Positions 3,344 to 15,312 of a stretch of DNA of 30,597 nt are shown here, piece by piece. The stretch is from positions 1 to 30,597 of the IMG/VR virus record IMGVR_UViG_3300020471_000032. One strand, written 5' to 3'. Each line of letters opens with the position of its first letter. Within the stretch, counting starts at the first letter, position 1. The translations under genes were made by a program, and so were the position numbers. The notes under the pieces were generated by a model. It was not told the DNA's origin. It worked only from the letters and a program-made list of their open reading frames with translations, and searched no databases. Source of the stretch: a virus (lineage: Duplodnaviria > Caudoviricetes).

Positions 3344-6300
3344 TTAAATAGTACCAAAATCGAGTTGTAAATTAGCACCACTTATAGTGCCTATGTTTGT
3401 CAGGTCGTTGTTTTGACCATCTAAATCTCCTGCTAATTGAGGAGTAGTATCAACAACCAAATCTGTATTTACATTTCCAATGGCTGTTGTTACATATGCA
3501 GTAGTTGCTATTTTTGTAGTATTGTCGGAAGCACTCTGAGTAGTTGCAGTTACACCGTTAGTCAGTACTCCAGAACTAGATGTTAGGCCACCAAATAATG
3601 TGTCTCTAGTTGCTACGTCTACACCGTCAACTGTGCCTGATACCGTGATGTTTCCTGTAACTGCTGCACCTGCTTGAAGTGTTTGTAATCCACTAAATGT
3701 GTTAGTGCCTAAACCAGCTAAATTTCCTGATGCTGTAACGCCACCTTGCCAAGTAGAACCGTTATATACTCTTAATTCATTAGATGTGGTATTAAAATAA
3801 AGATCTCCTTGATCGTTATTAGTTGATGGATCAGAACTATCTATACGATATAAATTTGCAAAATTATTAATATTTGTAAGATTACTTGCAGCAGTATTAA
3901 TGTTAGTAATATTAGTTGCAGCAGTGTTTACGTTTGCAATTGAACCACTAACTGTCGTTACGTTAGCGTTGTTACCAGCAACTGCATTAATATTAGTTGC
4001 ATTAGACACAACAGCATTTATATTAGATTCGTTACTGACAGCAGAGTTTATATTTGATGCGTTAGATACAGCAGCATTAATATTTGTCGCATTGTTATGA
4101 ACAGCATTAACGTTAGAAATGTTAGTTCCTACGCTATTTACATTTGCAATGTTAGTTGCAACTGTGTCTATTTCAGACGTGCTTTCGTTAAGGTCATCAG
4201 CAACAGTAATTATTTTTGCTATATTTGTCGCATTTGTATCCATGTTGGTTACATTTGCAGTTGTAGCTAATGTGTTCATGTCTGCTACTACATCAGTAGT
4301 GCCAAGTATTGCCATATCAGCTACAGCATCAACAGTACCTAATCTTCCAACTTCTGTAATTTTTCCAGCTACAGCATTAATATTGGCAGCGTTTGCTGCA
4401 ACTTGTCCAACGTTTGTGTTTCCACTAGCTACCGCAAGTATATTAGTTATATTGTCAGATACTGTTTTTATTGGATCATCTTTAACAGTGATAGTGTTAC
4501 CCATTCCACTATGTTGTGTGCAATAGTATGCAAATGTAGTTGGCTGTGTTTCTGGTACAACAAGTTGTACTTTTGCACCTGCTTGACCTTGTGTTCCAGT
4601 AACAACTACTCCAGTGTTGTATGCACTACCGCCACTAGAAAAACGTAATGGATGTGTAGCATTAGAAGCATCGCTCACATCAAATGTATAAGTCCAACCT
4701 TTATATAAAGTTAATGCAGGTTTATCAACACCATCAATTATAAATTTGCCAGTAGCTGCTGTAACTGTAAATGTTATTTCATCTTCTAATGCGTCAGCAA
4801 CAATATCTAAAGAACCGTTAGAAGTGCCTGTAGCAACTGCATCAGTTATTAAACCTAAATCTTCTGAATATGTTATTGCACCAGAAACAATAGATATATC
4901 ATCCAGTACAGTTTGTGTTGGAGATATATTGTTCCAATTAGTGCCATCGTAAACTCTTAAGTTATCGTTGCTGTTGTCAAACCATAAATCACCTTCTTGT
5001 AAACCTGAACCATCTGCTCTTTGACTTGGCGGACTATTTGATATTTGATATATATCTGCAAAGTTATTTATGTCAGCTACGTTTACACCTGCTGCCACAA
5101 CATTAGTAATATTATTACCAACTGTATTTACGTTTGATATAGAACCTGCAACTGTAGTTATATTGCTTGCATTAGAAACTGCACTATTGATATTAGTTGC
5201 ATTGCTAACAGCAGAGTTTATGTTGCTTGCATTAGAAACTGCTGCGTTTATATTTGTAGCGTTACCAGCGACATCCGTAACATTTGAACTAATACCTGCA
5301 ACTGTAGTTACATCAGACGAGATTCCAGCAACGGTTGTAACGTTTGCATTATTACCTCCAACTGTATTTACGTTACTGATATTTCCAGCAACAGTATTGA
5401 CATTATTAATAGAGCCAGCAGTAGTATTAACGTTTGCAATACTGCCTGAAACATTGCCTATATCTGTACCATCGTTTGCGACAGTTGTTACATCCGAAGA
5501 AATGCCAGCAACTGTGGTTACATTGCCACTTATACCGGCAACTGTATTTATGTTTGTGGCGTTACTAACGGCAGAATTAATGTTACTTGCGTTTGATACT
5601 GCACTATTAATATTGGTTTCGTTACCAGCTACCGCATTAACATTAGAAATATTACCGCCAACAGTGTTAACATTACTAATACTTCCGGCAACAATATTTG
5701 TATTAGTTAGGTTTGTACCAGTTATATTTAAATCTAACCAATTAGTATTACCAAGGTCATATACCCTCATAATATTTGAGGTTGTATTAAAATATAAAGC
5801 TCCATCTATTAATGCATTACCGTCATTGTCTAATGAAGGATTAGAATTTTTAGCACCTAAATATCTATCATCAAAAGAATCTAATGCAGTTTCTGCTGCT
5901 GCTTGTGCTGCTTGTGCTGCATTTTTATGATTGTTTGCATTCGTTTCTGACGTAGATGCTGCCGAAGCAGATGACGCTGCTGCGCTTTGCGAAGATGCTG
6001 CTGCGCTTGCACTATTAGCCGATGCTGTTGCAGAGTTTGCAGAATTTGTTGCGGACGTAGCTGCGTTGTTTGCAGATGTCGTAGCTGCTAATGCGTCTAC
6101 AATAAGATCCCAGTTGGCAGCATTAGTATTAGTTGTTAAGGGTTCTGATCCAGAGGATGTATGCGCTAAATTGCACATAAAAACATTATTGGTAGTTGTA
6201 TCTTTTACAAGATCTCTTACCGCATAAGATCTACCAGCTGCCCAATCACCTCTATATGTTCCTATCTCTTGTTGAACAGTAAAGTCACCGTCATTATTAA

Positions 6301-6790
6301 ATGATAAAACTTTATTTTTACGAGCATCAACACTTTCTGTAATTTCTGAATTACTAATAGTATTTGTTAATGAAAATTTTATAGATCTATCTAATTCGTT
6401 TTGTTGCTGTTGATGTAAAATTGCTGATTTATCTAGTGCATCATTAATAACTTCTGGATAAAATCCACCTTGGTTTGTAAGATCTGTTCCTTGTAATGAT
6501 TGAACATTAGATGTAATAACAATTTGAAATCCACTAGGTAAATTAAAATTATTACCACCTGATTTTAAAGTTATGCTTCCACCGGGATTACCGTTTTGAT
6601 CATTGCTAAGTGTAACTATATAATCATTGTTTACGCCAAGTGTTAATGTAGTCTCCACACTTGTTGCTACTTCTAATTTTTTTACAACTATTTCAGAATC
6701 TTCAAATACTTTAAAACCAAACGGATATGTATGAGCATTACCATTCCCAACAAAATTTTGTGTTTTTCTTGTAGTCGAATTTATTGTCAT
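3344..6790 (-). CDS. Long tail fibre protein (1148 aa)
   Basis: Podovirus-type anchor (GNGNAHTYPFGFKVF..TDLTNQGGFYPEVINDALD); CBM-like WAAGRSY module; Ala-rich coil; about 10-aa NINAVAGN repeats; three G(A/D)L(Y/W)F..RVY.G..W knob motifs; cupredoxin-like insert. Confidence 0.9.
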   Translation of the reverse strand: MTINSTTRKTQNFVGNGNAHTYPFGFKVFEDSEIVVKKLEVATSVETTLTLGVNNDYIVTLSNDQNGNPGGSITLKSGGNNFNLPSGFQIVITSNVQSLQGTDLTNQGGFYPEVINDALDKSAILHQQQQNELDRSIKFSLTNTISNSEITESVDARKNKVLSFNNDGDFTVQQEIGTYRGDWAAGRSYAVRDLVKDTTTNNVFMCNLAHTSSGSEPLTTNTNAANWDLIVDALAATTSANNAATSATNSANSATASANSASAAASSQSAAASSASAASTSETNANNHKNAAQAAQAAAETALDSFDDRYLGAKNSNPSLDNDGNALIDGALYFNTTSNIMRVYDLGNTNWLDLNITGTNLTNTNIVAGSISNVNTVGGNISNVNAVAGNETNINSAVSNASNINSAVSNATNINTVAGISGNVTTVAGISSDVTTVANDGTDIGNVSGSIANVNTTAGSINNVNTVAGNISNVNTVGGNNANVTTVAGISSDVTTVAGISSNVTDVAGNATNINAAVSNASNINSAVSNATNINSAVSNASNITTVAGSISNVNTVGNNITNVVAAGVNVADINNFADIYQISNSPPSQRADGSGLQEGDLWFDNSNDNLRVYDGTNWNNISPTQTVLDDISIVSGAITYSEDLGLITDAVATGTSNGSLDIVADALEDEITFTVTAATGKFIIDGVDKPALTLYKGWTYTFDVSDASNATHPLRFSSGGSAYNTGVVVTGTQGQAGAKVQLVVPETQPTTFAYYCTQHSGMGNTITVKDDPIKTVSDNITNILAVASGNTNVGQVAANAANINAVAGKITEVGRLGTVDAVADMAILGTTDVVADMNTLATTANVTNMDTNATNIAKIITVADDLNESTSEIDTVATNIANVNSVGTNISNVNAVHNNATNINAAVSNASNINSAVSNESNINAVVSNATNINAVAGNNANVTTVSGSIANVNTAATNITNINTAASNLTNINNFANLYRIDSSDPSTNNDQGDLYFNTTSNELRVYNGSTWQGGVTASGNLAGLGTNTFSGLQTLQAGAAVTGNITVSGTVDGVDVATRDTLFGGLTSSSGVLTNGVTATTQSASDNTTKIATTAYVTTAIGNVNTDLVVDTTPQLAGDLDGQNNDLTNIGTISGANLQLDFGTI
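3860..4470 (-). repeat. Decapeptide (about 30-bp) imperfect repeat tract 2 of the tail fibre
   Basis: NINAAVSNAS / NINSAVSNES / NINAVVSNAT / NINAVAGNNA units. Confidence 0.8.
5070..5720 (-). repeat. Decapeptide (about 30-bp) imperfect repeat tract 1 of the tail fibre
   Basis: About 20 units such as NVNTVGGNIS, NINSAVSNAS and DVTTVAGISS. Confidence 0.85.
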
Positions 6791-6852: not shown

Positions 6853-9800
6853 TTAACGTCTTCCACGTTTACCTGTAATTAACCCTCTTATAAAGTCAAT
6901 TGGATTATCTGGTACTATTTCACCACGTTGTACGTCACGTAGATAACCTGCTGATTTGCCAAATGGTGTAATTGGTACACCAAAAGTTTGTGTAAGCATA
7001 CTAGATATATCTCTAATTTGTCTGCCAGTAATTTCTTCTCCTTTAACCAGTGTTTCTAAAAGTCTTGCCGTACCTCCTAATCCTTGTTCTATTGCTTGAA
7101 ATGAAGGACTAGATGTAATTGTGTCATCATAAGGCAAATCATTAAGTGCATTAATTGGTATTATTGCTGCTTGGCCAACAATTGGTATAAATGCAACTTT
7201 ATATTTTAATACGTCACCAAACACTGCTTCTGCTACATCGTCTAAATATCCATCATCATCATCATCGTTTAAATTACCACCTAATGATCTTGCAATTAAA
7301 CCTGCTACAACTGCTGGCATAAATACAGAATAAATATATGTGTAAAGCATTTGAGCACCTTGTTGTGATTTATTTTTAAAACCTATATCGTCTTGTATTA
7401 ATTTTTTAAATTGTGTTGCATTAAGGTTAGCCATTGTATTGAAATAACCAGTAAATTGTGTAATTGCTTGTACAATTGGTGTAGAGTTTTGAAACGCTGC
7501 TCTATCTTCTGGCAATAAACTATCTTGTGTTAAACGTACATTTGCATCTGCTTGTTTTATAGCTTCATCTAACACTTCTTCGTTAGTTAGTTCTGATCCT
7601 AGTTCTGCGTGAACTTGATTAAATGTTCCTAACCAAACAACAGCATCTACTTGATTTTGAAAAGTTTGCTGTAAAAAATATGCGTGTTTTGTAGACCAAT
7701 CTTTAAATTTTTGAAATTGGTTTGGATCAATAATTAATTCATTTAAACGACCTTGTATATCAAACATTTGGTTTCTTTGGCGATCTTCCATAAATGGCGA
7801 TGCACCTGCAATCATTTCTTGTATACCTTGCCTATCTTTTGTATAAGCAACTAATGCACCGTTTAAATATTTACCTTTTACTTTTAAATTTGCAGGGAAT
7901 ATACCTGTGTATTGTTGTATAGCGTTAGAAATGTTAGCAAACATAATACCTATACCTGCTCTTCTTCTTTGTGCCACTAACAACTTATCTATGTTTGGAT
8001 CTAGTCCAGAAGGTGTGAAAGTTGTTTGATTTGCAGCAGTTTGTAACCAAGGCAATATCATTTCTTTCATTACAGTTGGGTCTATTACTTCTAAAGTTTT
8101 TTCAAAATCTTTATGTTTTAAAATTTTTAAAGTATCTTTTAAAACTGGTTGAACATATGCAAAACGTAAAGAGTCATCTATATGTTTTGTCATGTATCCT
8201 AAATGCAATGACAATGGTGCTGCATAATTTTCAACACGACTTTTTGTCATGCCTTTTGGAGCAGAAGGTAATGAATTTTTAAACTGTAATTTTGTTGTTT
8301 CTATAGCTTGATCTACTGGTTGATCTACCATTAACGGATCAGTTTTTGCAGGTACATATCCACCTCTGTATGTGCCAAATCTATTTGTTATTGGTGTAGC
8401 TTCAACTTCTTTAAAATAATATCCTTCTGTTTCTTTATGTGCTTTTTGTAAAAGCGGTTTCATTTTTTCATTTAAATCCCATACTGCTTGTAAAAAAACA
8501 TAATCATTTTCTGTAAGATGTCCTTCATTTATCATGCGTTCTACAAAAGTATCCCATCTTGTTGTATTTAAACTACCGTCTTCATTTAACTCACCCCATT
8601 TTCTACCAAGTAATAATTTTCTTAAATTACTTTTATTACCTGTGTGCAGCATTGCTCCAAGCAATTCCACCTTACCTCTAGCGTTTGAGTTTGTACCAAA
8701 ATCATAATTTAGTTCGCCAGAAAATATTGAATCATTACCAAAATCTACTTGTGCAATAAGATCTGAATATTCTTTAGTAAATATAAGTTGTTGCTCTCTA
8801 TATTTTGTTAAAGCATCTTTCATAGGAAACCATAAAGTGTTATAGAATTTGCCTAATTTACCTCCTTTTAATTCTAAAACTGTTGTACCTACGCTACCTT
8901 CTTTAACTTGATCTGCACCATCCATGCCATCTACCCAATGTTCCATACGTCTTAATTTTGCTTTAAATCCAAGCATCATTTTATAAATTTGATATTTAAA
9001 ACCTATTGCTTTTCTAGCTCCGGGCGGATTTTCTTGTCTTTCTTTTAATCGAGGACTTTTATTTATTTTTTCTTTCATATTATCTATAAGTGGTGTTGCT
9101 GCTTCTTCTACGCTTTGTAATTTACCTAACATTCTTACTTGCTCATCACGCAACGATTGATGCCACAACGATTGCACCATCTCATATACATAATCAAAAT
9201 CCTCAGTTGACAGATCTGTAAGTGATTTTTGATTATTGCTTGCCTGTAAATCAAGTATAATTGGTTCTATTTCTGCGTATAATTGTGGGTCGTATGTTTC
9301 TAATTTTTTTGTAAAATCATTAGGATTTTCTATTACTGGGCCAACACCGTAAGAAGACATAATAGCTCTAGCAGCGTTTACTAAATCTGTGTTTCTAGTG
9401 TTTGCTATTTTACTATCGCTTTTTTTAAATAATTTAGTAACAAAAAAACTTTTTGCTGCATCGTATCTCTTTTGTATATCTATTGCTGTTTTAGCTAATT
9501 GATTATTTAGTAATTGTGATCTTTTTGCTTCTAATGCAGCTTGACTGTCACCTTTTTTCATTGCAGCTTCAGCAGCTTTTAATGCTCTAGCTTCTGCTCT
9601 TGCAAATTCTGTTGGTCTAATTTCTGATAATTTTTTCTTTGCTAAAATATCTTCTGCAACTTGTTTAGCAGCAGCGAGTTGTAACCTAACTGGTTGCATA
9701 GATTTAGATAAAAAACGTAACTCAGCAGATATAAACCTTGCTCTAGCTTCGTTATGTATTGCTTCTTGTACTTTTAATTCTTGTTGTCTTGGATCTAAAA

Positions 9801-12800
9801 GATTACTAAATTCTTCAATCATTCTTTGTTCAGTTCTTTCTTGTACACGATCTTCTATTGGTTGCATTTCTAATAATGCATCTACCATATCTGTTGCTGT
9901 TTTAAATCCAAACATTTCTGATATAAGTTTTACGTCTACACCCTTTTTAGTAGCCATACGTTTTTGTGTTAATTCTTTTATTTCAGACTTCATATCATAA
10001 AATGGTATTAATTTACTAAGACTTTCTATAGATAATTTATGGCCTGTTTTAACTTTTACAATTTTGCCTTTTTCATTTACAGTTTCGCCACGTTTCAAAT
10101 ATGCAGCTAATTTATATATTTTTTCTTGTTTAACTTTTTCTTGTTCTTCTGCTTCTACTTTTTTATATAATTTTTTGGTATCTTTTTGGTATTTTTTTAA
10201 TAATCCTTGTCTTGAATTATTTAGCCAACGCACTTGTCTCATGCTATCTTGTGTCATTATTTCTAGTGATTCTTCTTCTGCTTCTTTAAGTGCTGCTGTA
10301 TATTCTGCCCATTGCTCATTGTTCATACCACTAGTTTCTTGTGTTTCAAACATTGCTCTCATATCGTATATATCGTTTGCTTGTATTATTTGCTCATCAC
10401 TAGCTAACATACGATCCATAACGCTTCTAACCTCATCAGTTAACATAGGTAAATCTTGACCAGTTTCTTGTCTATACAAATCATTAATTCTTCCTCTTAC
10501 ATCTTCGTAAACTTTCTTTATGTAATAACTAAATCTTTGAAACAATTTACGTAAACCAGTACTTGGTGCTTTATTTTCGTGTAAATAAATTTCGTAATTG
10601 TATGCAAATTGTTCGTGATATTTACGTTTTTGTTCTAAATCAAATGTTTTCCATGTTTCTATATCTTTGACACCCCAAAAATCTAATAATGTATCAAAAT
10701 CACTAATTAAAGTTGATGGGGCATTTTCTCCTGTAACTATATTTTCTAAAACAGTTAACATATAATGTGCTGTTTCATGTGCAAAAGTAGAAAAATCTGC
10801 TTCCTTAGTTAATAATGTCGTTAACGTTCTTGGATTAAAACGACCTCTAGGCCCTTGTGGTATTTGATTTTGTGAAAATAATTTACTTTGTTCTGCAAGA
10901 TCTATTACGTCTACTCGAATAGAACCTCTAGGTCTTCCAACTGAGAGTCTGTAATCTCTTCGTCCGTTTGGGAATTCATCATCGAGACTAAGTCTAGAAG
11001 GGTCGACTCTGAGTCCAACTGAGGTATCACCATAGCCAGTATCTGCGATAGCTCTGGTGGTAACGTAGACATCAGGTTCTCCAAGGCTTCTAAGTTCACT
11101 GGACTCTCTGATTGATTTGGCTGCTTGTTTGTTGGTGTGGTGGTAGACAGTAACGGTTCCGTCTGGGTTAAGAGGGAGTCCTGTTCGCTCGTCAATGTTT
11201 GTGCTGTCTGCTCCTTGTTGTTGGAAAGTATTAGCTCCTCGTAAGCTTCCTGTTCCTCCAACATCTCGTTGTGTTCCTGTTGTTCTGTTAGCTGCCTGAC
11301 GTTGGAGTTCATCGTTAACTTCCTTTAGTTTAATTTGGATGTCAGCTTCTGACACGCCTAGTTCTACTGCCATTTTAGCAGAAGCATTAGCGTAGTCAGG
11401 AGCTTCGCTTTCTTCGTATCCTCTTATTATTTCGTCTGTATCTAATTTTGCAGTGTCATACAGACGTTTTTCTGGATACCAAAGCAATGCTTGTAGGTCT
11501 GCCATTGTAAGATCTTTGTACTCTTGTTGCAATATGCTCAACACTTGTTCAAAGACTTTTGTAATATTTCTTCTCTCTGGAGCACCGCTTGGTGTTTCTT
11601 TTTGACCATCTAAAAATTTAGCTAAAGCATTACCACCTTTACGTATTTCGCTTCCTAAACCTACTCTTGGTGTTCCTTTTCTAGGGTTGCCTAGTACATC
11701 TTGTAATAGCTGTGCATTCTTAGGATTAGTAACTAAACCTATAGCGTTCATAAGATCTCTATTGTTTTCTGACGTACTAGCTTTTTGTATTGCAACAGCT
11801 ACCTCATCAAGATTAGATAGTCTTACTTTTGTTTTTATTATTTCTTCTAATGCTCTTTTTTCTTTTAAAGTTAAACCTTTAATTATAGATTTTAATTGTC
11901 CACGTTTTACTTTTGCTTGCTTTGTGTAATCAAGAACTAATGTTCCTGTCATTCTGCCCCATGAACGTATTAACCATCTATCCATAGTTAACTGTTCATA
12001 ATGACCTTTTAGATTTGCATAAAAACCATTACCAATTTTTGGCCCCATTATTGCAGCACCATATGCTGTATCACTTTTGTTTAAACCAGTTACTGTAGAG
12101 CCTGTGTAATCTTCTATGTCCTTTACTAAATGTGTGCTTCCTAAATATTGCTCTAATGCTTCAAATCCTTTTTCTCTAATTAATTTATTAAACATTTTAA
12201 AATTACGGTTTATAGCTTTCTTTGCATCGCCTTCACCAATAGTTTTTTCAGGAAATGTGCCAAAGGGATTATCTTCTGTACGTGATTCTTGCCAAGCAGT
12301 ATATGCAGTTTCTGCTAATTGCAAGTTTCTATCAACCTTAATCATGTTAGATGTATTCGCTAACGCATAGACAAATGCAAAATTAGCAACTGGATCTGTT
12401 TCTAGCTCTGGATGTATAAGAGACAAAATACCTTTAGCTTTTGCCAATGTTGTGTCGTACCAACCAATAGCATTGTCATTATTCTCTAGTGCATATCTTG
12501 CGTCTGCTAATGCAGTGTTGACTAAATATTTTTCTACTTCTGCTGTAAATACTGAGACATCTACGCCTGCCTTTTTTGCTTCGTCTTTTACTCGTTGTTG
12601 CAAAGCTAATTTAAAATCACGGTTAGTCTCAAATGTGTTTTTGCCTGCAAAATCAAAACTCTCAATTAAATTAGCAATTTCTTTTACAGTTTCTGGAACA
12701 ACCTTGCCTTGTTTTTGTGTACCTTGTTGTTCAAAAAATTCGTTTTCTAATTCTACTTGTTGTTGTTCGTATAAATTATCTAGCTCTCTAGACCAGTTCC

Positions 12801-15312
12801 CTTGGTTGTCAACTGACTTAACTGCGTTAGTGTCAAATACAACTATTTCTCTACCATCTAATACCTCCATTATTGCACCGTCATAACCTTCACGAATTAA
12901 TTTATCTCTAAAAGCAGCAGACGCAGCTGCTCCTCCTCTTTTAATAATGTTTTTATCCTCTGCGGTTGCTAGATAAGGATTTTCTAAACGTACATATAAA
13001 GGCATTACTTTTTTATCTTCCGCAGGTGCTTTAGTTTTTACTTTTTTATTTGTTGCATATGTCTGTGCCAACTCTTCTCTATCTGTTAAATAAATGCCTT
13101 TACCTAAAAACCCATTGTCATATTTATTTGGGTGGTCAAGATCAAACTGATCAAAACTATCAGTAGTGCCATGATATACAACCATTGGAGTTCCATCAGG
13201 ATTTTTTATTATTGACTTGCCAAACCAATTTTTAAAAAATTCAGTTTCTGTTTTAATAGTTCCGTCTTGATTAAATAATTGTGATCCAAACTGACTATCT
13301 TTTTTATCAAATTTAATATTATAAAAATGTTGATTTATAAATTCTTTTGGTGTTTGACCTGTAAGTTTAGAGTATGCACCTGCAAATGCAGAAGGCAACC
13401 CTGCTAAAAATCTATTGTCGTTTTCAGTAAATTTTGTATTTAAAACTTTTAATTGTGCAGCTATTTGTCTTTTTATTTGTTTTTCTTCTTTAGCTGCTTG
13501 TTCCATTCTATTTTTTTGCTCATTCATTATTGTGACAACTTTGTCTAATGCTTCTTGTTTGTTTTTAAGTTGTGATGCCGAATAATCAGTAAGGCTTAAA
13601 CTGTCTGCACCTAGACGTAAGTGTGGTTGTAATGATTTATCAAATTCAGTACCTGCAATGTTTGCTGCATAATCACCAGTTTTAATTTTTATATCTTTAC
13701 CTACTAATCCTTCTTTTTTTATATCTTTTATTTGTTTACTAATATCAGGGCTAAATAATTCTAATTGTTGTTCAGTAATTAAATTCTTATCTAATTGGTT
13801 TAAAAATTCACCAGCATCAATATAAAAATCATCTACACCTTCACTGTCTGAAATTTGTTGTATGTAATTTTGAAACACAGTTGCATTTCTTTTTTTAGTT
13901 TTATCATTTGCAGAAACTTGGCTTAATTTTTCTATAAAAGCAACGTCACTTTTTGCTTGATTTACTTTGTTTACTTCATTTACATAGCTACCGCCACTAC
14001 CTACTAGTCCAAACAAAACCATGCCTTTCATAGTTTGTGTCATTGTAGACCAAACTCTATCGCCTATTTGTTCTGGTGTAAGTGTATTTATATCTTCTTG
14101 ACTTAAATTAGATAAAACGTTTACACCTGCAATAGATACTAATTCTTGTAATACTTCCGTTCCTGTTTCAGAACCTATATTTGTAACGTAATTACCACCT
14201 AATGCTTTTAATGCACCTAGCTGCGTTGCCTTTTGTGCATTTTTGCTCATTGCTTGCACAGTTACTCGTCTTAATATTCTTTTGTTAAATTGATTAATTG
14301 CTACGTCTTTTGCTCCTTTATAAACCTTGCCTAACAAAGCTAAATTAACTCTTTCAAGAGCACCATTAACAACTCCAACTATTTGTGCTCTAGTCTGTGC
14401 TTCATCTTTTGTATAACCCCTATCTAACAATTCAAGGTACGCATGACCTTCTTCTACTTGTACTGTATCTAATGCAAGTTTGTTTGTAAAAGCACCCCAG
14501 CCAGAAAGGCCACCCAAAACACCACCAATAACTGAACCTTTTGGGCCACCTGCTGAACCTACTGTTGCTCCAAGTTTTGCTCGTATTTTAGCCGTAGCTA
14601 ATCCAGTAAGTGCTGCTTGCGGTACAGACGCACCATATTGACCAATATAATATGTAGCTGCTTCTATAAAATTTTCACCATCTGCGTCCATTCGTGCAAT
14701 TTCTTCATCAATTTCTTTAATCCTGTCAAAAATTTCTTGATCTGTTTTACTTAAATTTAAAAAATCACCTTGAGTTGCAGTACTTAAAACTCTAGGTATA
14801 TCAATAGGGCCTAAACTAGATTTTAATTGTGAACCTAATTTACCTTTTTCGTTGCTTAATATTCCTTTTCTAGTGCCTTGATACGCACCTTTTAAACCTA
14901 CAGTGCTATATAGTTTTTCAAAAAAACCTAAATTTTCAATATTATCGTGTGCTATTTGTGCAAAACTAGGATTACGCAATCGTTCTCCTAATATAGGATT
15001 TACAAGAGATAATCTACGTTGATCTATTAATTGTTGTTTTTTTCTTTCTTCTAAAAATTTTAAAGATTTTTCGGGATCTAATGCCATGCCATCAGGCAAG
15101 CCTAATTCTGCAACTAATTTTTGTGCTTTACCTGCCTTGTCAGGATCAGTACTAGACGCAGCTTTAATTTGTGCTTTTATAAATTCATCTTTTTTTTCTT
15201 GTTCTTCACGATAATAGTCACTAAATGGATTAAAATTTGGATCAAATTCTGTACCATAATCTAGGTTTGTTGAGTTGTCTACAAGCTGATCAAAAGGGTT
15301 TGATGAAGTCAT
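6853..15312 (-). CDS. Giant internal virion/ejection protein; polyvalent protein with LPD22-like N-terminus, two ART-like domains, an HhH glycosylase-like domain and a zincin motif
   Basis: 2819 aa at the T7 gp16-equivalent position. Motifs: FKNWFG..VVYHGT..GIYLT..GYDG..EIVVF..VKS; GWYD..GPKIGNGFYANL..TMDRW..LQALLW; VTVYHHT..VYVTT..DDEFP; FAHETAH..HEQFA. Confidence 0.85.
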   Translation of the reverse strand: MTSSNPFDQLVDNSTNLDYGTEFDPNFNPFSDYYREEQEKKDEFIKAQIKAASSTDPDKAGKAQKLVAELGLPDGMALDPEKSLKFLEERKKQQLIDQRRLSLVNPILGERLRNPSFAQIAHDNIENLGFFEKLYSTVGLKGAYQGTRKGILSNEKGKLGSQLKSSLGPIDIPRVLSTATQGDFLNLSKTDQEIFDRIKEIDEEIARMDADGENFIEAATYYIGQYGASVPQAALTGLATAKIRAKLGATVGSAGGPKGSVIGGVLGGLSGWGAFTNKLALDTVQVEEGHAYLELLDRGYTKDEAQTRAQIVGVVNGALERVNLALLGKVYKGAKDVAINQFNKRILRRVTVQAMSKNAQKATQLGALKALGGNYVTNIGSETGTEVLQELVSIAGVNVLSNLSQEDINTLTPEQIGDRVWSTMTQTMKGMVLFGLVGSGGSYVNEVNKVNQAKSDVAFIEKLSQVSANDKTKKRNATVFQNYIQQISDSEGVDDFYIDAGEFLNQLDKNLITEQQLELFSPDISKQIKDIKKEGLVGKDIKIKTGDYAANIAGTEFDKSLQPHLRLGADSLSLTDYSASQLKNKQEALDKVVTIMNEQKNRMEQAAKEEKQIKRQIAAQLKVLNTKFTENDNRFLAGLPSAFAGAYSKLTGQTPKEFINQHFYNIKFDKKDSQFGSQLFNQDGTIKTETEFFKNWFGKSIIKNPDGTPMVVYHGTTDSFDQFDLDHPNKYDNGFLGKGIYLTDREELAQTYATNKKVKTKAPAEDKKVMPLYVRLENPYLATAEDKNIIKRGGAAASAAFRDKLIREGYDGAIMEVLDGREIVVFDTNAVKSVDNQGNWSRELDNLYEQQQVELENEFFEQQGTQKQGKVVPETVKEIANLIESFDFAGKNTFETNRDFKLALQQRVKDEAKKAGVDVSVFTAEVEKYLVNTALADARYALENNDNAIGWYDTTLAKAKGILSLIHPELETDPVANFAFVYALANTSNMIKVDRNLQLAETAYTAWQESRTEDNPFGTFPEKTIGEGDAKKAINRNFKMFNKLIREKGFEALEQYLGSTHLVKDIEDYTGSTVTGLNKSDTAYGAAIMGPKIGNGFYANLKGHYEQLTMDRWLIRSWGRMTGTLVLDYTKQAKVKRGQLKSIIKGLTLKEKRALEEIIKTKVRLSNLDEVAVAIQKASTSENNRDLMNAIGLVTNPKNAQLLQDVLGNPRKGTPRVGLGSEIRKGGNALAKFLDGQKETPSGAPERRNITKVFEQVLSILQQEYKDLTMADLQALLWYPEKRLYDTAKLDTDEIIRGYEESEAPDYANASAKMAVELGVSEADIQIKLKEVNDELQRQAANRTTGTQRDVGGTGSLRGANTFQQQGADSTNIDERTGLPLNPDGTVTVYHHTNKQAAKSIRESSELRSLGEPDVYVTTRAIADTGYGDTSVGLRVDPSRLSLDDEFPNGRRDYRLSVGRPRGSIRVDVIDLAEQSKLFSQNQIPQGPRGRFNPRTLTTLLTKEADFSTFAHETAHYMLTVLENIVTGENAPSTLISDFDTLLDFWGVKDIETWKTFDLEQKRKYHEQFAYNYEIYLHENKAPSTGLRKLFQRFSYYIKKVYEDVRGRINDLYRQETGQDLPMLTDEVRSVMDRMLASDEQIIQANDIYDMRAMFETQETSGMNNEQWAEYTAALKEAEEESLEIMTQDSMRQVRWLNNSRQGLLKKYQKDTKKLYKKVEAEEQEKVKQEKIYKLAAYLKRGETVNEKGKIVKVKTGHKLSIESLSKLIPFYDMKSEIKELTQKRMATKKGVDVKLISEMFGFKTATDMVDALLEMQPIEDRVQERTEQRMIEEFSNLLDPRQQELKVQEAIHNEARARFISAELRFLSKSMQPVRLQLAAAKQVAEDILAKKKLSEIRPTEFARAEARALKAAEAAMKKGDSQAALEAKRSQLLNNQLAKTAIDIQKRYDAAKSFFVTKLFKKSDSKIANTRNTDLVNAARAIMSSYGVGPVIENPNDFTKKLETYDPQLYAEIEPIILDLQASNNQKSLTDLSTEDFDYVYEMVQSLWHQSLRDEQVRMLGKLQSVEEAATPLIDNMKEKINKSPRLKERQENPPGARKAIGFKYQIYKMMLGFKAKLRRMEHWVDGMDGADQVKEGSVGTTVLELKGGKLGKFYNTLWFPMKDALTKYREQQLIFTKEYSDLIAQVDFGNDSIFSGELNYDFGTNSNARGKVELLGAMLHTGNKSNLRKLLLGRKWGELNEDGSLNTTRWDTFVERMINEGHLTENDYVFLQAVWDLNEKMKPLLQKAHKETEGYYFKEVEATPITNRFGTYRGGYVPAKTDPLMVDQPVDQAIETTKLQFKNSLPSAPKGMTKSRVENYAAPLSLHLGYMTKHIDDSLRFAYVQPVLKDTLKILKHKDFEKTLEVIDPTVMKEMILPWLQTAANQTTFTPSGLDPNIDKLLVAQRRRAGIGIMFANISNAIQQYTGIFPANLKVKGKYLNGALVAYTKDRQGIQEMIAGASPFMEDRQRNQMFDIQGRLNELIIDPNQFQKFKDWSTKHAYFLQQTFQNQVDAVVWLGTFNQVHAELGSELTNEEVLDEAIKQADANVRLTQDSLLPEDRAAFQNSTPIVQAITQFTGYFNTMANLNATQFKKLIQDDIGFKNKSQQGAQMLYTYIYSVFMPAVVAGLIARSLGGNLNDDDDDGYLDDVAEAVFGDVLKYKVAFIPIVGQAAIIPINALNDLPYDDTITSSPSFQAIEQGLGGTARLLETLVKGEEITGRQIRDISSMLTQTFGVPITPFGKSAGYLRDVQRGEIVPDNPIDFIRGLITGKRGRR
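10911..11312 (-). CDS. Putative nested (+1 frame) acidic protein overprinted on the second ART-like domain
   Basis: 133 codons; AAGGAAG 6 nt before the ATG; local GC about 48% against about 20-35% in sampled flanking lines; host-frame codons avoid creating +1-frame stops. Confidence 0.55.
   Translation of the reverse strand: MNSNVRQLTEQQEHNEMLEEQEAYEELILSNNKEQTAQTLTSEQDSLLTQTEPLLSTTTPTNKQPNQSESPVNLEALENLMSTLPPELSQILAMVIPQLDSESTLLDLVSMMNSQTDEEITDSQLEDLEVLFE

Follow-up and report, generated by a model that had tools for sequence, protein, structure and literature searches.

A small gene nested out of frame behind an HhH-GPD glycosylase-like domain in the gene for a giant phage polyvalent protein

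The virus record IMGVR_UViG_3300020471_000032 was analyzed over its 30,597 nucleotides (30.6 kb; referred to below as the window), and the subject of this report is a small gene that lies out of frame within the gene for a giant polyvalent protein. The minus strand of the window carries a podovirus-type structural cluster with genes for terminase, portal, a GP7-type capsid, tail tube proteins and tail fibers and with three genes at the internal-virion position. The capsid is 82–85% identical to those of two Manatee Spring phages, phage zth2-2 and Limnohabitans phage DC33, and a search of the phage collection by DNA returned no named relative of the window. The gene that contains the nested frame, called the host gene here (6853..15312, minus strand), occupies an internal-virion position in this cluster and encodes a polyvalent protein of 2819 amino acids (aa). 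An LPD22 domain, an ART-PolyVal domain, an HhH-GPD glycosylase-like domain (HhH-like domain), an ADP-ribosyltransferase-like (ART-like) domain and a PHROG 9880 C-terminal region could be identified in this protein, which is likely to be injected from the virion.

The nested open reading frame (ORF) is located in the +1 frame of the host gene at 10911..11312 on the minus strand, over host residues 1334–1467. As described in an initial annotation made from the DNA alone, it has 133 codons, begins 6 nt after a Shine-Dalgarno (SD)-like AAGGAAG and ends where the host frame reads SIRV. The context of the start is TAA AGG AAG TTA ACG ATG (TAA and SD at 11319..11327, minus strand), and the SD is weaker than the AGGAGG found in most relatives. 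A +1 stop precedes the ORF, but it does not stand immediately before it, as first thought: it lies four codons upstream of the ATG and shares bases with the SD. The compositional shift noted in the initial annotation was also recovered, with a GC content of 47% in the nested region versus 33% in the whole host gene; at third codon positions C is increased and G is depleted (3/135). The predicted product is acidic, again as proposed, with 27 Asp/Glu versus 3 Lys/Arg, and Gly, Cys and Trp are all absent.

The codon choice of the host gene in this region is unusual. All 16 Leu, Ile and Val sites within the nested ORF at which a +1 stop could arise use codons that make none, which bears out the stop avoidance first noticed by eye. 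When codons were resampled according to gene-wide usage, a mean of 10.5 stops fell over the nested ORF and none of 20,000 resamplings was free of stops. The codon-permutation test of ORF length that had been suggested gave a +1 run of at least 137 codons in 0 of 3,000 permutations of the whole gene (median 50), and the second-longest +1 run in the real gene is 46 codons. Because permutation of the region's own codons alone resulted in just P = 0.085, the signal lies in the codon choice itself. A search for an internal promoter found 6 sigma-70-like sites against 6.5 expected. The RNA-library match to the locus is a single contig of 143 nt (10816–10958), which is uninformative on translation.

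To follow the nested frame among relatives, 80 viral loci were chosen on the basis of the host domain, without regard to the +1 frame. All of these but L078 and L079, 78 in total, have an open +1 frame of 125–145 codons, the end codon of which is nearly always the same. An AGGAGG is found 5–7 nt ahead of an ATG, GTG or TTG in most of the 80 loci; it is formed by the host codons CAG (58/58) and GAG (66/67), both of which are rare elsewhere in the gene. In the wider survey described below, the SD is weak or missing in some high-GC loci. The three start codons interchange at one place, and insertions and deletions are in-frame. Over 67 distinct loci no +1 stop was observed versus 9.5 expected.

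Selection was estimated as a pN/pS ratio in which, among host-changing substitutions, those that also alter the nested protein were counted (pairwise counts and column bootstrap, on related sequences). The ratio in the nested frame was 0.36 [0.18–0.72] for the N-terminal part, 0.32 [0.11–0.77] for the C-terminal part and 0.54 [0.24–1.33] for the nested linker alone, while controls gave 1.01 [0.79–1.31] for the non-overlapped upstream domain and 0.78 [0.46–1.41] for 14 ART loci with a closed frame. Over the ART part the nested ratio was ∼0.38 [0.18–0.72], with an interval that overlaps that of the closed-frame ART control, and the amino acid distance there is lower (0.18 vs. 0.35). The host frame itself is unconstrained over the N-terminal part of the nested gene (pN/pS 1.75). 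Thus a frame conserved in the open state beyond chance, an SD and start of its own and purifying selection in the nested frame were all found, and it is concluded that the nested ORF is very probably a real gene, as predicted from sequence, and that the SD-led, selected gene overprinted on an ART-like domain that the initial annotation proposed is present.

Two other accounts of the long frame were considered. Import from a GC-richer donor, named at the outset as a finding that would undo the proposal, is ruled out by the depleted third-position G together with low-GC stand-alone copies of the ART-like domain in which the +1 frame is closed. A programmed frameshift as the main route to the product is disfavored in the window clade, because a +1 stop stands 2–5 codons before the start in most loci and ATG, GTG and TTG replace each other behind the SD. 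Two high-GC loci, L175 and L188, have no canonical start near the motif described below, and there a frameshift may be used. The nested ORF is carried by phage DC33 (PQ492659, locus L192) and the two Manatee Spring phages but is missing from the annotation of all three of these records; gene callers list the product now and then, mostly on short contigs.

In the predicted structure of the nested protein a low-confidence N-terminal helix (residues ∼8–35; 11208..11291, minus strand; modeled as helix at residues 10–35 with a predicted local distance difference test score, pLDDT, of 51–66) is followed by a disordered linker, acidic and rich in Ser, Thr, Pro and Gln, and by a C-terminal bundle of four helices (residues 74–132; 10917..11093, minus strand; pLDDT ∼83) that lies over the ART-like domain. 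The helix carries the motif (S/T/D)-x-Q-(Q/E)-x-H-(N/D), in which Q11 and N15 are invariant in 57 sequences. This is the widely shared part of the protein and it lies beneath the unconstrained host linker, and the bundle is limited to one low-GC clade. Searches with the family gave no hit in Pfam and a single weak hit in PHROG (E 0.005); fold searches gave nothing in BFVD at E ≤ 0.001 and a best PDB match with Z 5.5. Despite this lack of matches no new fold is demonstrated for the nested protein.

Directly upstream of the nested start lies the HhH-like domain (host residues 860–1337, 478 residues; 11302..12735, minus strand), which is related to DUF7178 and was modeled with a pLDDT of 88.5. 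In a wide structural search the top 23 matches, with Z scores of 5.4–9.7, all had the HhH-GPD fold and unrelated entries appeared at 5.0 or below. The best match was an 8-oxoguanine glycosylase (Z 9.7, root-mean-square deviation 4.4, 193 residues aligned), followed by NTHL1 (Z 8.7), a queuine salvage enzyme (8.6), ROS1 (8.2) and the phage base transferase gp46/PUGT (7.1). A Z score of 9.7 is moderate for a helical domain, and Foldseek with the same model found no match in the PDB. The ESM Atlas ties the domain to DUF7178, and matches in BFVD fall in other polyvalent proteins. A lysine in a GPKIG motif (host residue 1092) and an aspartate in a TMDRW motif (host residue 1111; K233 and D252 of the domain) are retained in 158 of 158 parsed HhH loci, while nine loci did not parse. 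A lysine with an aspartate 19 residues downstream is the arrangement of the bifunctional glycosylase/lyases. From the modeled fold and these residues we infer that the domain may be an active glycosylase/lyase or a base-modifying enzyme. Compared to the known members of the superfamily (OGG/AGOG, endonuclease III, MutY, AlkA, ROS1 and gp46/PUGT) it shares the predicted fold, the HhH lysine and the downstream aspartate, but differs by its low identity of ∼10%, its large helical insertions, its context in a virion protein and its nested partner gene.

In its C-terminal part the nested gene covers a small mobile domain (host residues 1370–1467; 10912..11205, minus strand), which is dual-coded in the window clade only. 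The initial annotation had called this domain ART-like, and this can be kept on the weaker evidence of conserved residues, Atlas neighbors and weak profile hits. His, Tyr and Asp are invariant in 19 sequences (with Tyr replaced by Phe in the L103 group), the ESM Atlas neighbors, at scores of 0.92–0.94, are PARP (16%) and Tox-ART-HYD1 (71%), and weak Pfam hits were obtained for 5 of 28 homologs, with no match for the window copy of the domain. The Pfam ART-PolyVal hit in the host protein (E 1.6e-21) is a different domain, at host residues 706–837 (12802..13197, minus strand), which is not overprinted and in which a long +1 run is absent. A search of solved structures by sequence returned nothing for either the ART-like or the HhH-like domain.

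In the initial annotation the nested protein was proposed as a cognate antidote to this ART-like domain, and the distribution of the two argues against it. Among 71 distinct ART-like loci compared at the DNA level, the +1 frame is open in 54 of the 55 that have the HhH-like domain upstream (the remaining one has a late stop), and it is closed, with 2–6 stops each, in 15 of the 15 without it; one further open locus shows the tail of the upstream domain at its contig end. The ART-like domain is present in 766 protein clusters, and in the best 149 of these the upstream domain of the window is adjacent in 3, elsewhere in the protein in 2 and absent from 144. The nested gene thus does not co-occur with the ART-like domain as a partner gene of it would. 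In a tree of 110 copies of the domain, calculated with rough support and with protein P0169 left out, the overlapped copies lie within one 27-row subclade (support 85/98), together with two stand-alone copies that are closed. These two, L079 and L458, are stand-alone ART-like genes with a GC content of 36–37% on low-GC contigs. It follows from this arrangement that over this part the ART-like frame probably came first, with a likely later extension of the nested frame over it in the low-GC clade only.

Some single loci of this family deserve mention. In the database protein P0169 the sequence passes from one of the two frames to the other, probably because the assembly is frameshifted. Loci L103–L111 form a subclade with a diverged ART-like domain, in which the strand-2 Tyr is changed to Phe, and retain the full nested ORF. 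At ∼1800–2245 of L438, a GGAG-led +1 ORF of ∼145 codons covers ∼80% of an ART-like domain that follows a different upstream domain, HhH-like by eye; this is possibly an independent extension.

The association with the HhH-like domain was seen when host residues 1215–1334 were used for the search. This gave 80 loci, of which 24 were without the ART-like domain, one of them because its contig ends. In all 23 informative ART-less loci the N-terminal motif of the nested protein is present in +1 just behind the HhH-like domain and is then followed by unrelated tails over varied downstream domains. The survey was extended to 154 distinct HhH loci with GC contents of 31–71%, searched with a motif expression made by eye. 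The motif was found in +1 in 144 of these and never in +2, and a start codon lies within 15 codons in 142 of the 144. The nested frames are 24–132 codons long, and the position of the motif stays fixed behind the HhH-like domain while the downstream parts vary. The ten misses consist of three motif variants, six other +1 ORFs and one locus, L365, with none; four of the six are stand-alone genes on alphaproteobacterial megaplasmids with 26% identity, and each of these four homologs has an SD-led +1 ORF of 55–68 aa in its 3' tail. Across the surveyed sequences, then, the nested gene lies directly downstream of the HhH-GPD-like domain and is co-inherited with it, L365 being the one clear exception, and it is this domain that the gene follows and not the ART-like domain.

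A sister family of small genes (70–80 aa, with the same N-terminal motif and a C-terminal motif of its own) was sought by DNA pattern, which gave 15 matches, and the context was read for 8. Five matches are nested behind an intact HhH tail, four have a short remnant of this tail and one is a chance match. Cut-out copies adjoin transposase or membrane-protein genes in contexts that do not look like phage. These copies look like orphan immunity genes and fit equally well a small gene with a job of its own. In L466, L467 and L472 (at ∼690–970) the sister gene and a 19-residue remnant of the HhH tail stand behind the same membrane-protein gene, and the L466 copy adjoins a transposase-like pair, an apparent excision from a giant phage gene. 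Another arrangement was observed in the +1 frame upstream of position 1501 of L462, where a nested ORF carries the helix-turn-helix-like C-terminal piece of the sister family alone, ahead of a domain that is GNAT-like by its motif. The HhH tail is absent from the 170 codons upstream, and a search with the downstream domain returned 3 loci. This locus hints that the nested proteins are modular.

It is tentatively proposed, with a little less than an even chance of being right, that the nested small protein is an inhibitor that restrains the injected HhH-GPD glycosylase-like enzyme. In this model, the acidic N-terminal helix would bind and restrain the upstream domain, a predicted DNA-attacking enzyme. 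Both frames would be translated from the same late mRNA, and the small protein would block the enzyme while new giant protein is made; at injection it would be left behind, so that the enzyme could act once inside the next cell. An enzyme domain internal to a polyprotein would leave a downstream partner gene no other way to remain attached than a second frame beneath the linker. In the low-GC clade an older mobile ART-like domain would have come to lie directly behind, and extension of the nested frame over it would have given rise to the new four-helix bundle. The tie of the nested gene to the HhH-like domain, which includes the ART-less loci and the stand-alone plasmid homologs, speaks for this model, as do the fold and the conserved Lys and Asp of that domain, the cut-out sister copies that resemble orphan immunity genes, and the precedents discussed below. 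What the initial annotation put forward, an effector with an inhibitor nested in its gene, is retained, but with the HhH-GPD-like domain in place of the ART-like domain as the partner. In a wider form, which is rather unlikely to hold in all its parts, the HhH-GPD effector and its out-of-frame inhibitor would travel together as a single cassette among polyproteins, plasmids and prophages, the small gene alone would be captured by bacteria as orphan immunity, and one clade would have grown a new folded domain de novo over the older ART-like domain.

Several observations weigh against an inhibitor of the HhH-like domain. L365 keeps the HhH Lys and Asp and lacks the nested motif (a short helix-like stretch that faintly resembles it is encoded in the host frame at 4230–4330 of this locus). 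The motif, which was chosen by eye, is also matched in the host frame of 36 of the 154 loci and is not matched by the ORFs of the plasmid homologs. The surveyed loci are related and not independent. An HhH domain is lacking from the 900 bases around five of the 15 sister matches, as would be compatible with an independent function. Many sister proteins lose their acidic character after the first ten residues, and the homology of the window and sister families is supported by position and by a profile match of 13 columns with E 0.026. Since the shared motif is short and the plasmid ORFs miss it, the nested genes may not all be homologous. Finally, phage enzymes of the HhH fold that transfer groups to bases exist (8z2m).

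The best-surviving alternative, doubtful but to be taken seriously, is that the nested gene is a passenger: a small phage gene with a target of its own, for instance a host or defense protein, that once stood downstream of the HhH gene, was swallowed in a domain fusion and is linked to the HhH-like domain by shared descent alone; the giant frame would then read through it as a linker. A host frame that is free over the N-terminal helix while the nested frame is constrained would be expected in this case, and the free-standing sister genes, the sister-type C-terminal piece before the GNAT-like domain of L462 and the further SD-led +1 candidates in linkers of the same giant genes (listed below) point in the same direction. 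Shared descent accounts less well for an N-terminal motif that remains fixed behind the HhH-like domain while everything downstream is exchanged, and for stand-alone HhH genes that still carry a nested ORF in their tail at 26% identity. An improbable explanation is a role in assembly or stoichiometry, in which the protein would be a chaperone or scaffold for folding, packaging or ejection, or the internal start would tune translation of the long mRNA. The gene does share mRNA and strand with a virion gene, and the layout of helix, acidic S/T/P/Q-rich linker and helix bundle is compatible with such a role, but the gene accompanies a single optional domain, not the conserved virion core, it occurs with stand-alone plasmid genes, and a purely translational role would need no selection at the level of amino acids.

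It is very improbable that the overlapped ART-like domain has its cognate antidote in the nested protein or, in a weaker form, is regulated by the bundle alone. The bundle is exactly coextensive with the domain, its end is the same in nearly all loci and selection acts on it, and L438 shows a second, apparently independent frame over the domain, but the HhH-less ART loci are all closed, including low-GC stand-alone copies of the same subclade, the HhH-like domain is missing from most of the best 149 ART clusters, and the nested start and oldest part lie upstream and persist without the ART-like domain. That the ORF is no gene, and that codon bias, GC import or an RNA element produced the open frame, is scarcely credible given the stop avoidance, the conserved SD, the interchange of start codons, the in-frame indels and pN/pS below 1 against controls near 1, even though the RNA-library evidence is one uninformative contig and the lower divergence over the ART part could partly mean recent common ancestry.

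Out-of-frame genes embedded in other genes are well known in phages, such as Rz1 in Rz of lambda and B in A and E in D of phiX174, and Rz and Rz1 are functional partners. Like Rz1, the gene described here is nested on the same strand and has its own ribosome-binding site; it differs in that it is not part of a lysis or lipoprotein pair and that it lies partly beneath a linker and partly over an older folded mobile domain.

Polyvalent proteins of phages and conjugative elements are known to contain ART domains with an H-Y-D active site (Iyer et al., 2017; PMC5512222). The host protein resembles those described there, as a giant multi-domain protein at a virion position with LPD22 and ART-PolyVal, and its overprinted domain resembles the H-Y-D type. 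The words "glycosylase" and "overlap" are absent from the main text of that paper, and the passages covered here describe neither nested genes nor an HhH-GPD effector domain; its supplementary files S1/S2 may assign an LPD number to the domain. For the MuF toxins of phages, it has been proposed that small genes immediately behind the toxin domain confer immunity (Jamet et al., 2017; PMC5576092). Both systems combine an effector domain of the virion with a short ORF right behind it that contains no known domain. In MuF proteins the toxin domain is C-terminal and the small gene comes after the stop codon; in the host gene the predicted effector domain is internal, and the small gene lies in another frame of a gene that continues.

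The proposed inhibition has a parallel in Ugi, p56 and SAUGI, acidic DNA-mimic inhibitors of uracil-DNA glycosylase (PMC3711442, PMC3902945). They too are small acidic proteins that block a DNA glycosylase, but they are encoded by separate genes and target a host uracil-DNA glycosylase of another fold, and no likeness in sequence or fold to the nested protein was found. A search of open-licence PMC and bioRxiv returned no paper on DUF7178, on polyvalent proteins with an HhH glycosylase or on nested genes in polyvalent proteins. Two aspects are new here: in phages, prophages and plasmids alike the nested gene is tied to a single enzyme-like domain, and its dual coding extends beyond a linker to a folded domain.

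Annotation drops nested frames. If the small protein is indeed an inhibitor, this would explain how a phage can safely make a virion domain that attacks DNA, it would point to a new family of glycosylase-like effectors, and it would provide a rule by which the antidotes of internal domains of polyvalent proteins can be found, namely by a search of the +1 frame behind each such domain. Whatever the function of the protein, its extension in the low-GC clade offers a clean natural example of overprinting on a folded and widespread domain from which a helical domain arose, and non-overlapped outgroups exist for it. Limnohabitans phage DC33, a cultured member, makes the basic claim testable.

Additional frames were noticed in the window and its relatives. 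A 286-codon antisense ORF is present at 5070–5930 on the plus strand of the window, within the tail-fiber gene (3344–6790), and may result from repetitive sequence. Other giant genes contain SD-led +1 ORFs of 45–77 codons in their R/G-rich linkers, most of them as single copies: at 1013, 1520, 1799 and 2162 of L363, 4057 and 4267 of L193, 2744 of L366, 6153 of L192, and 1328 of L191 together with L280 and L281.

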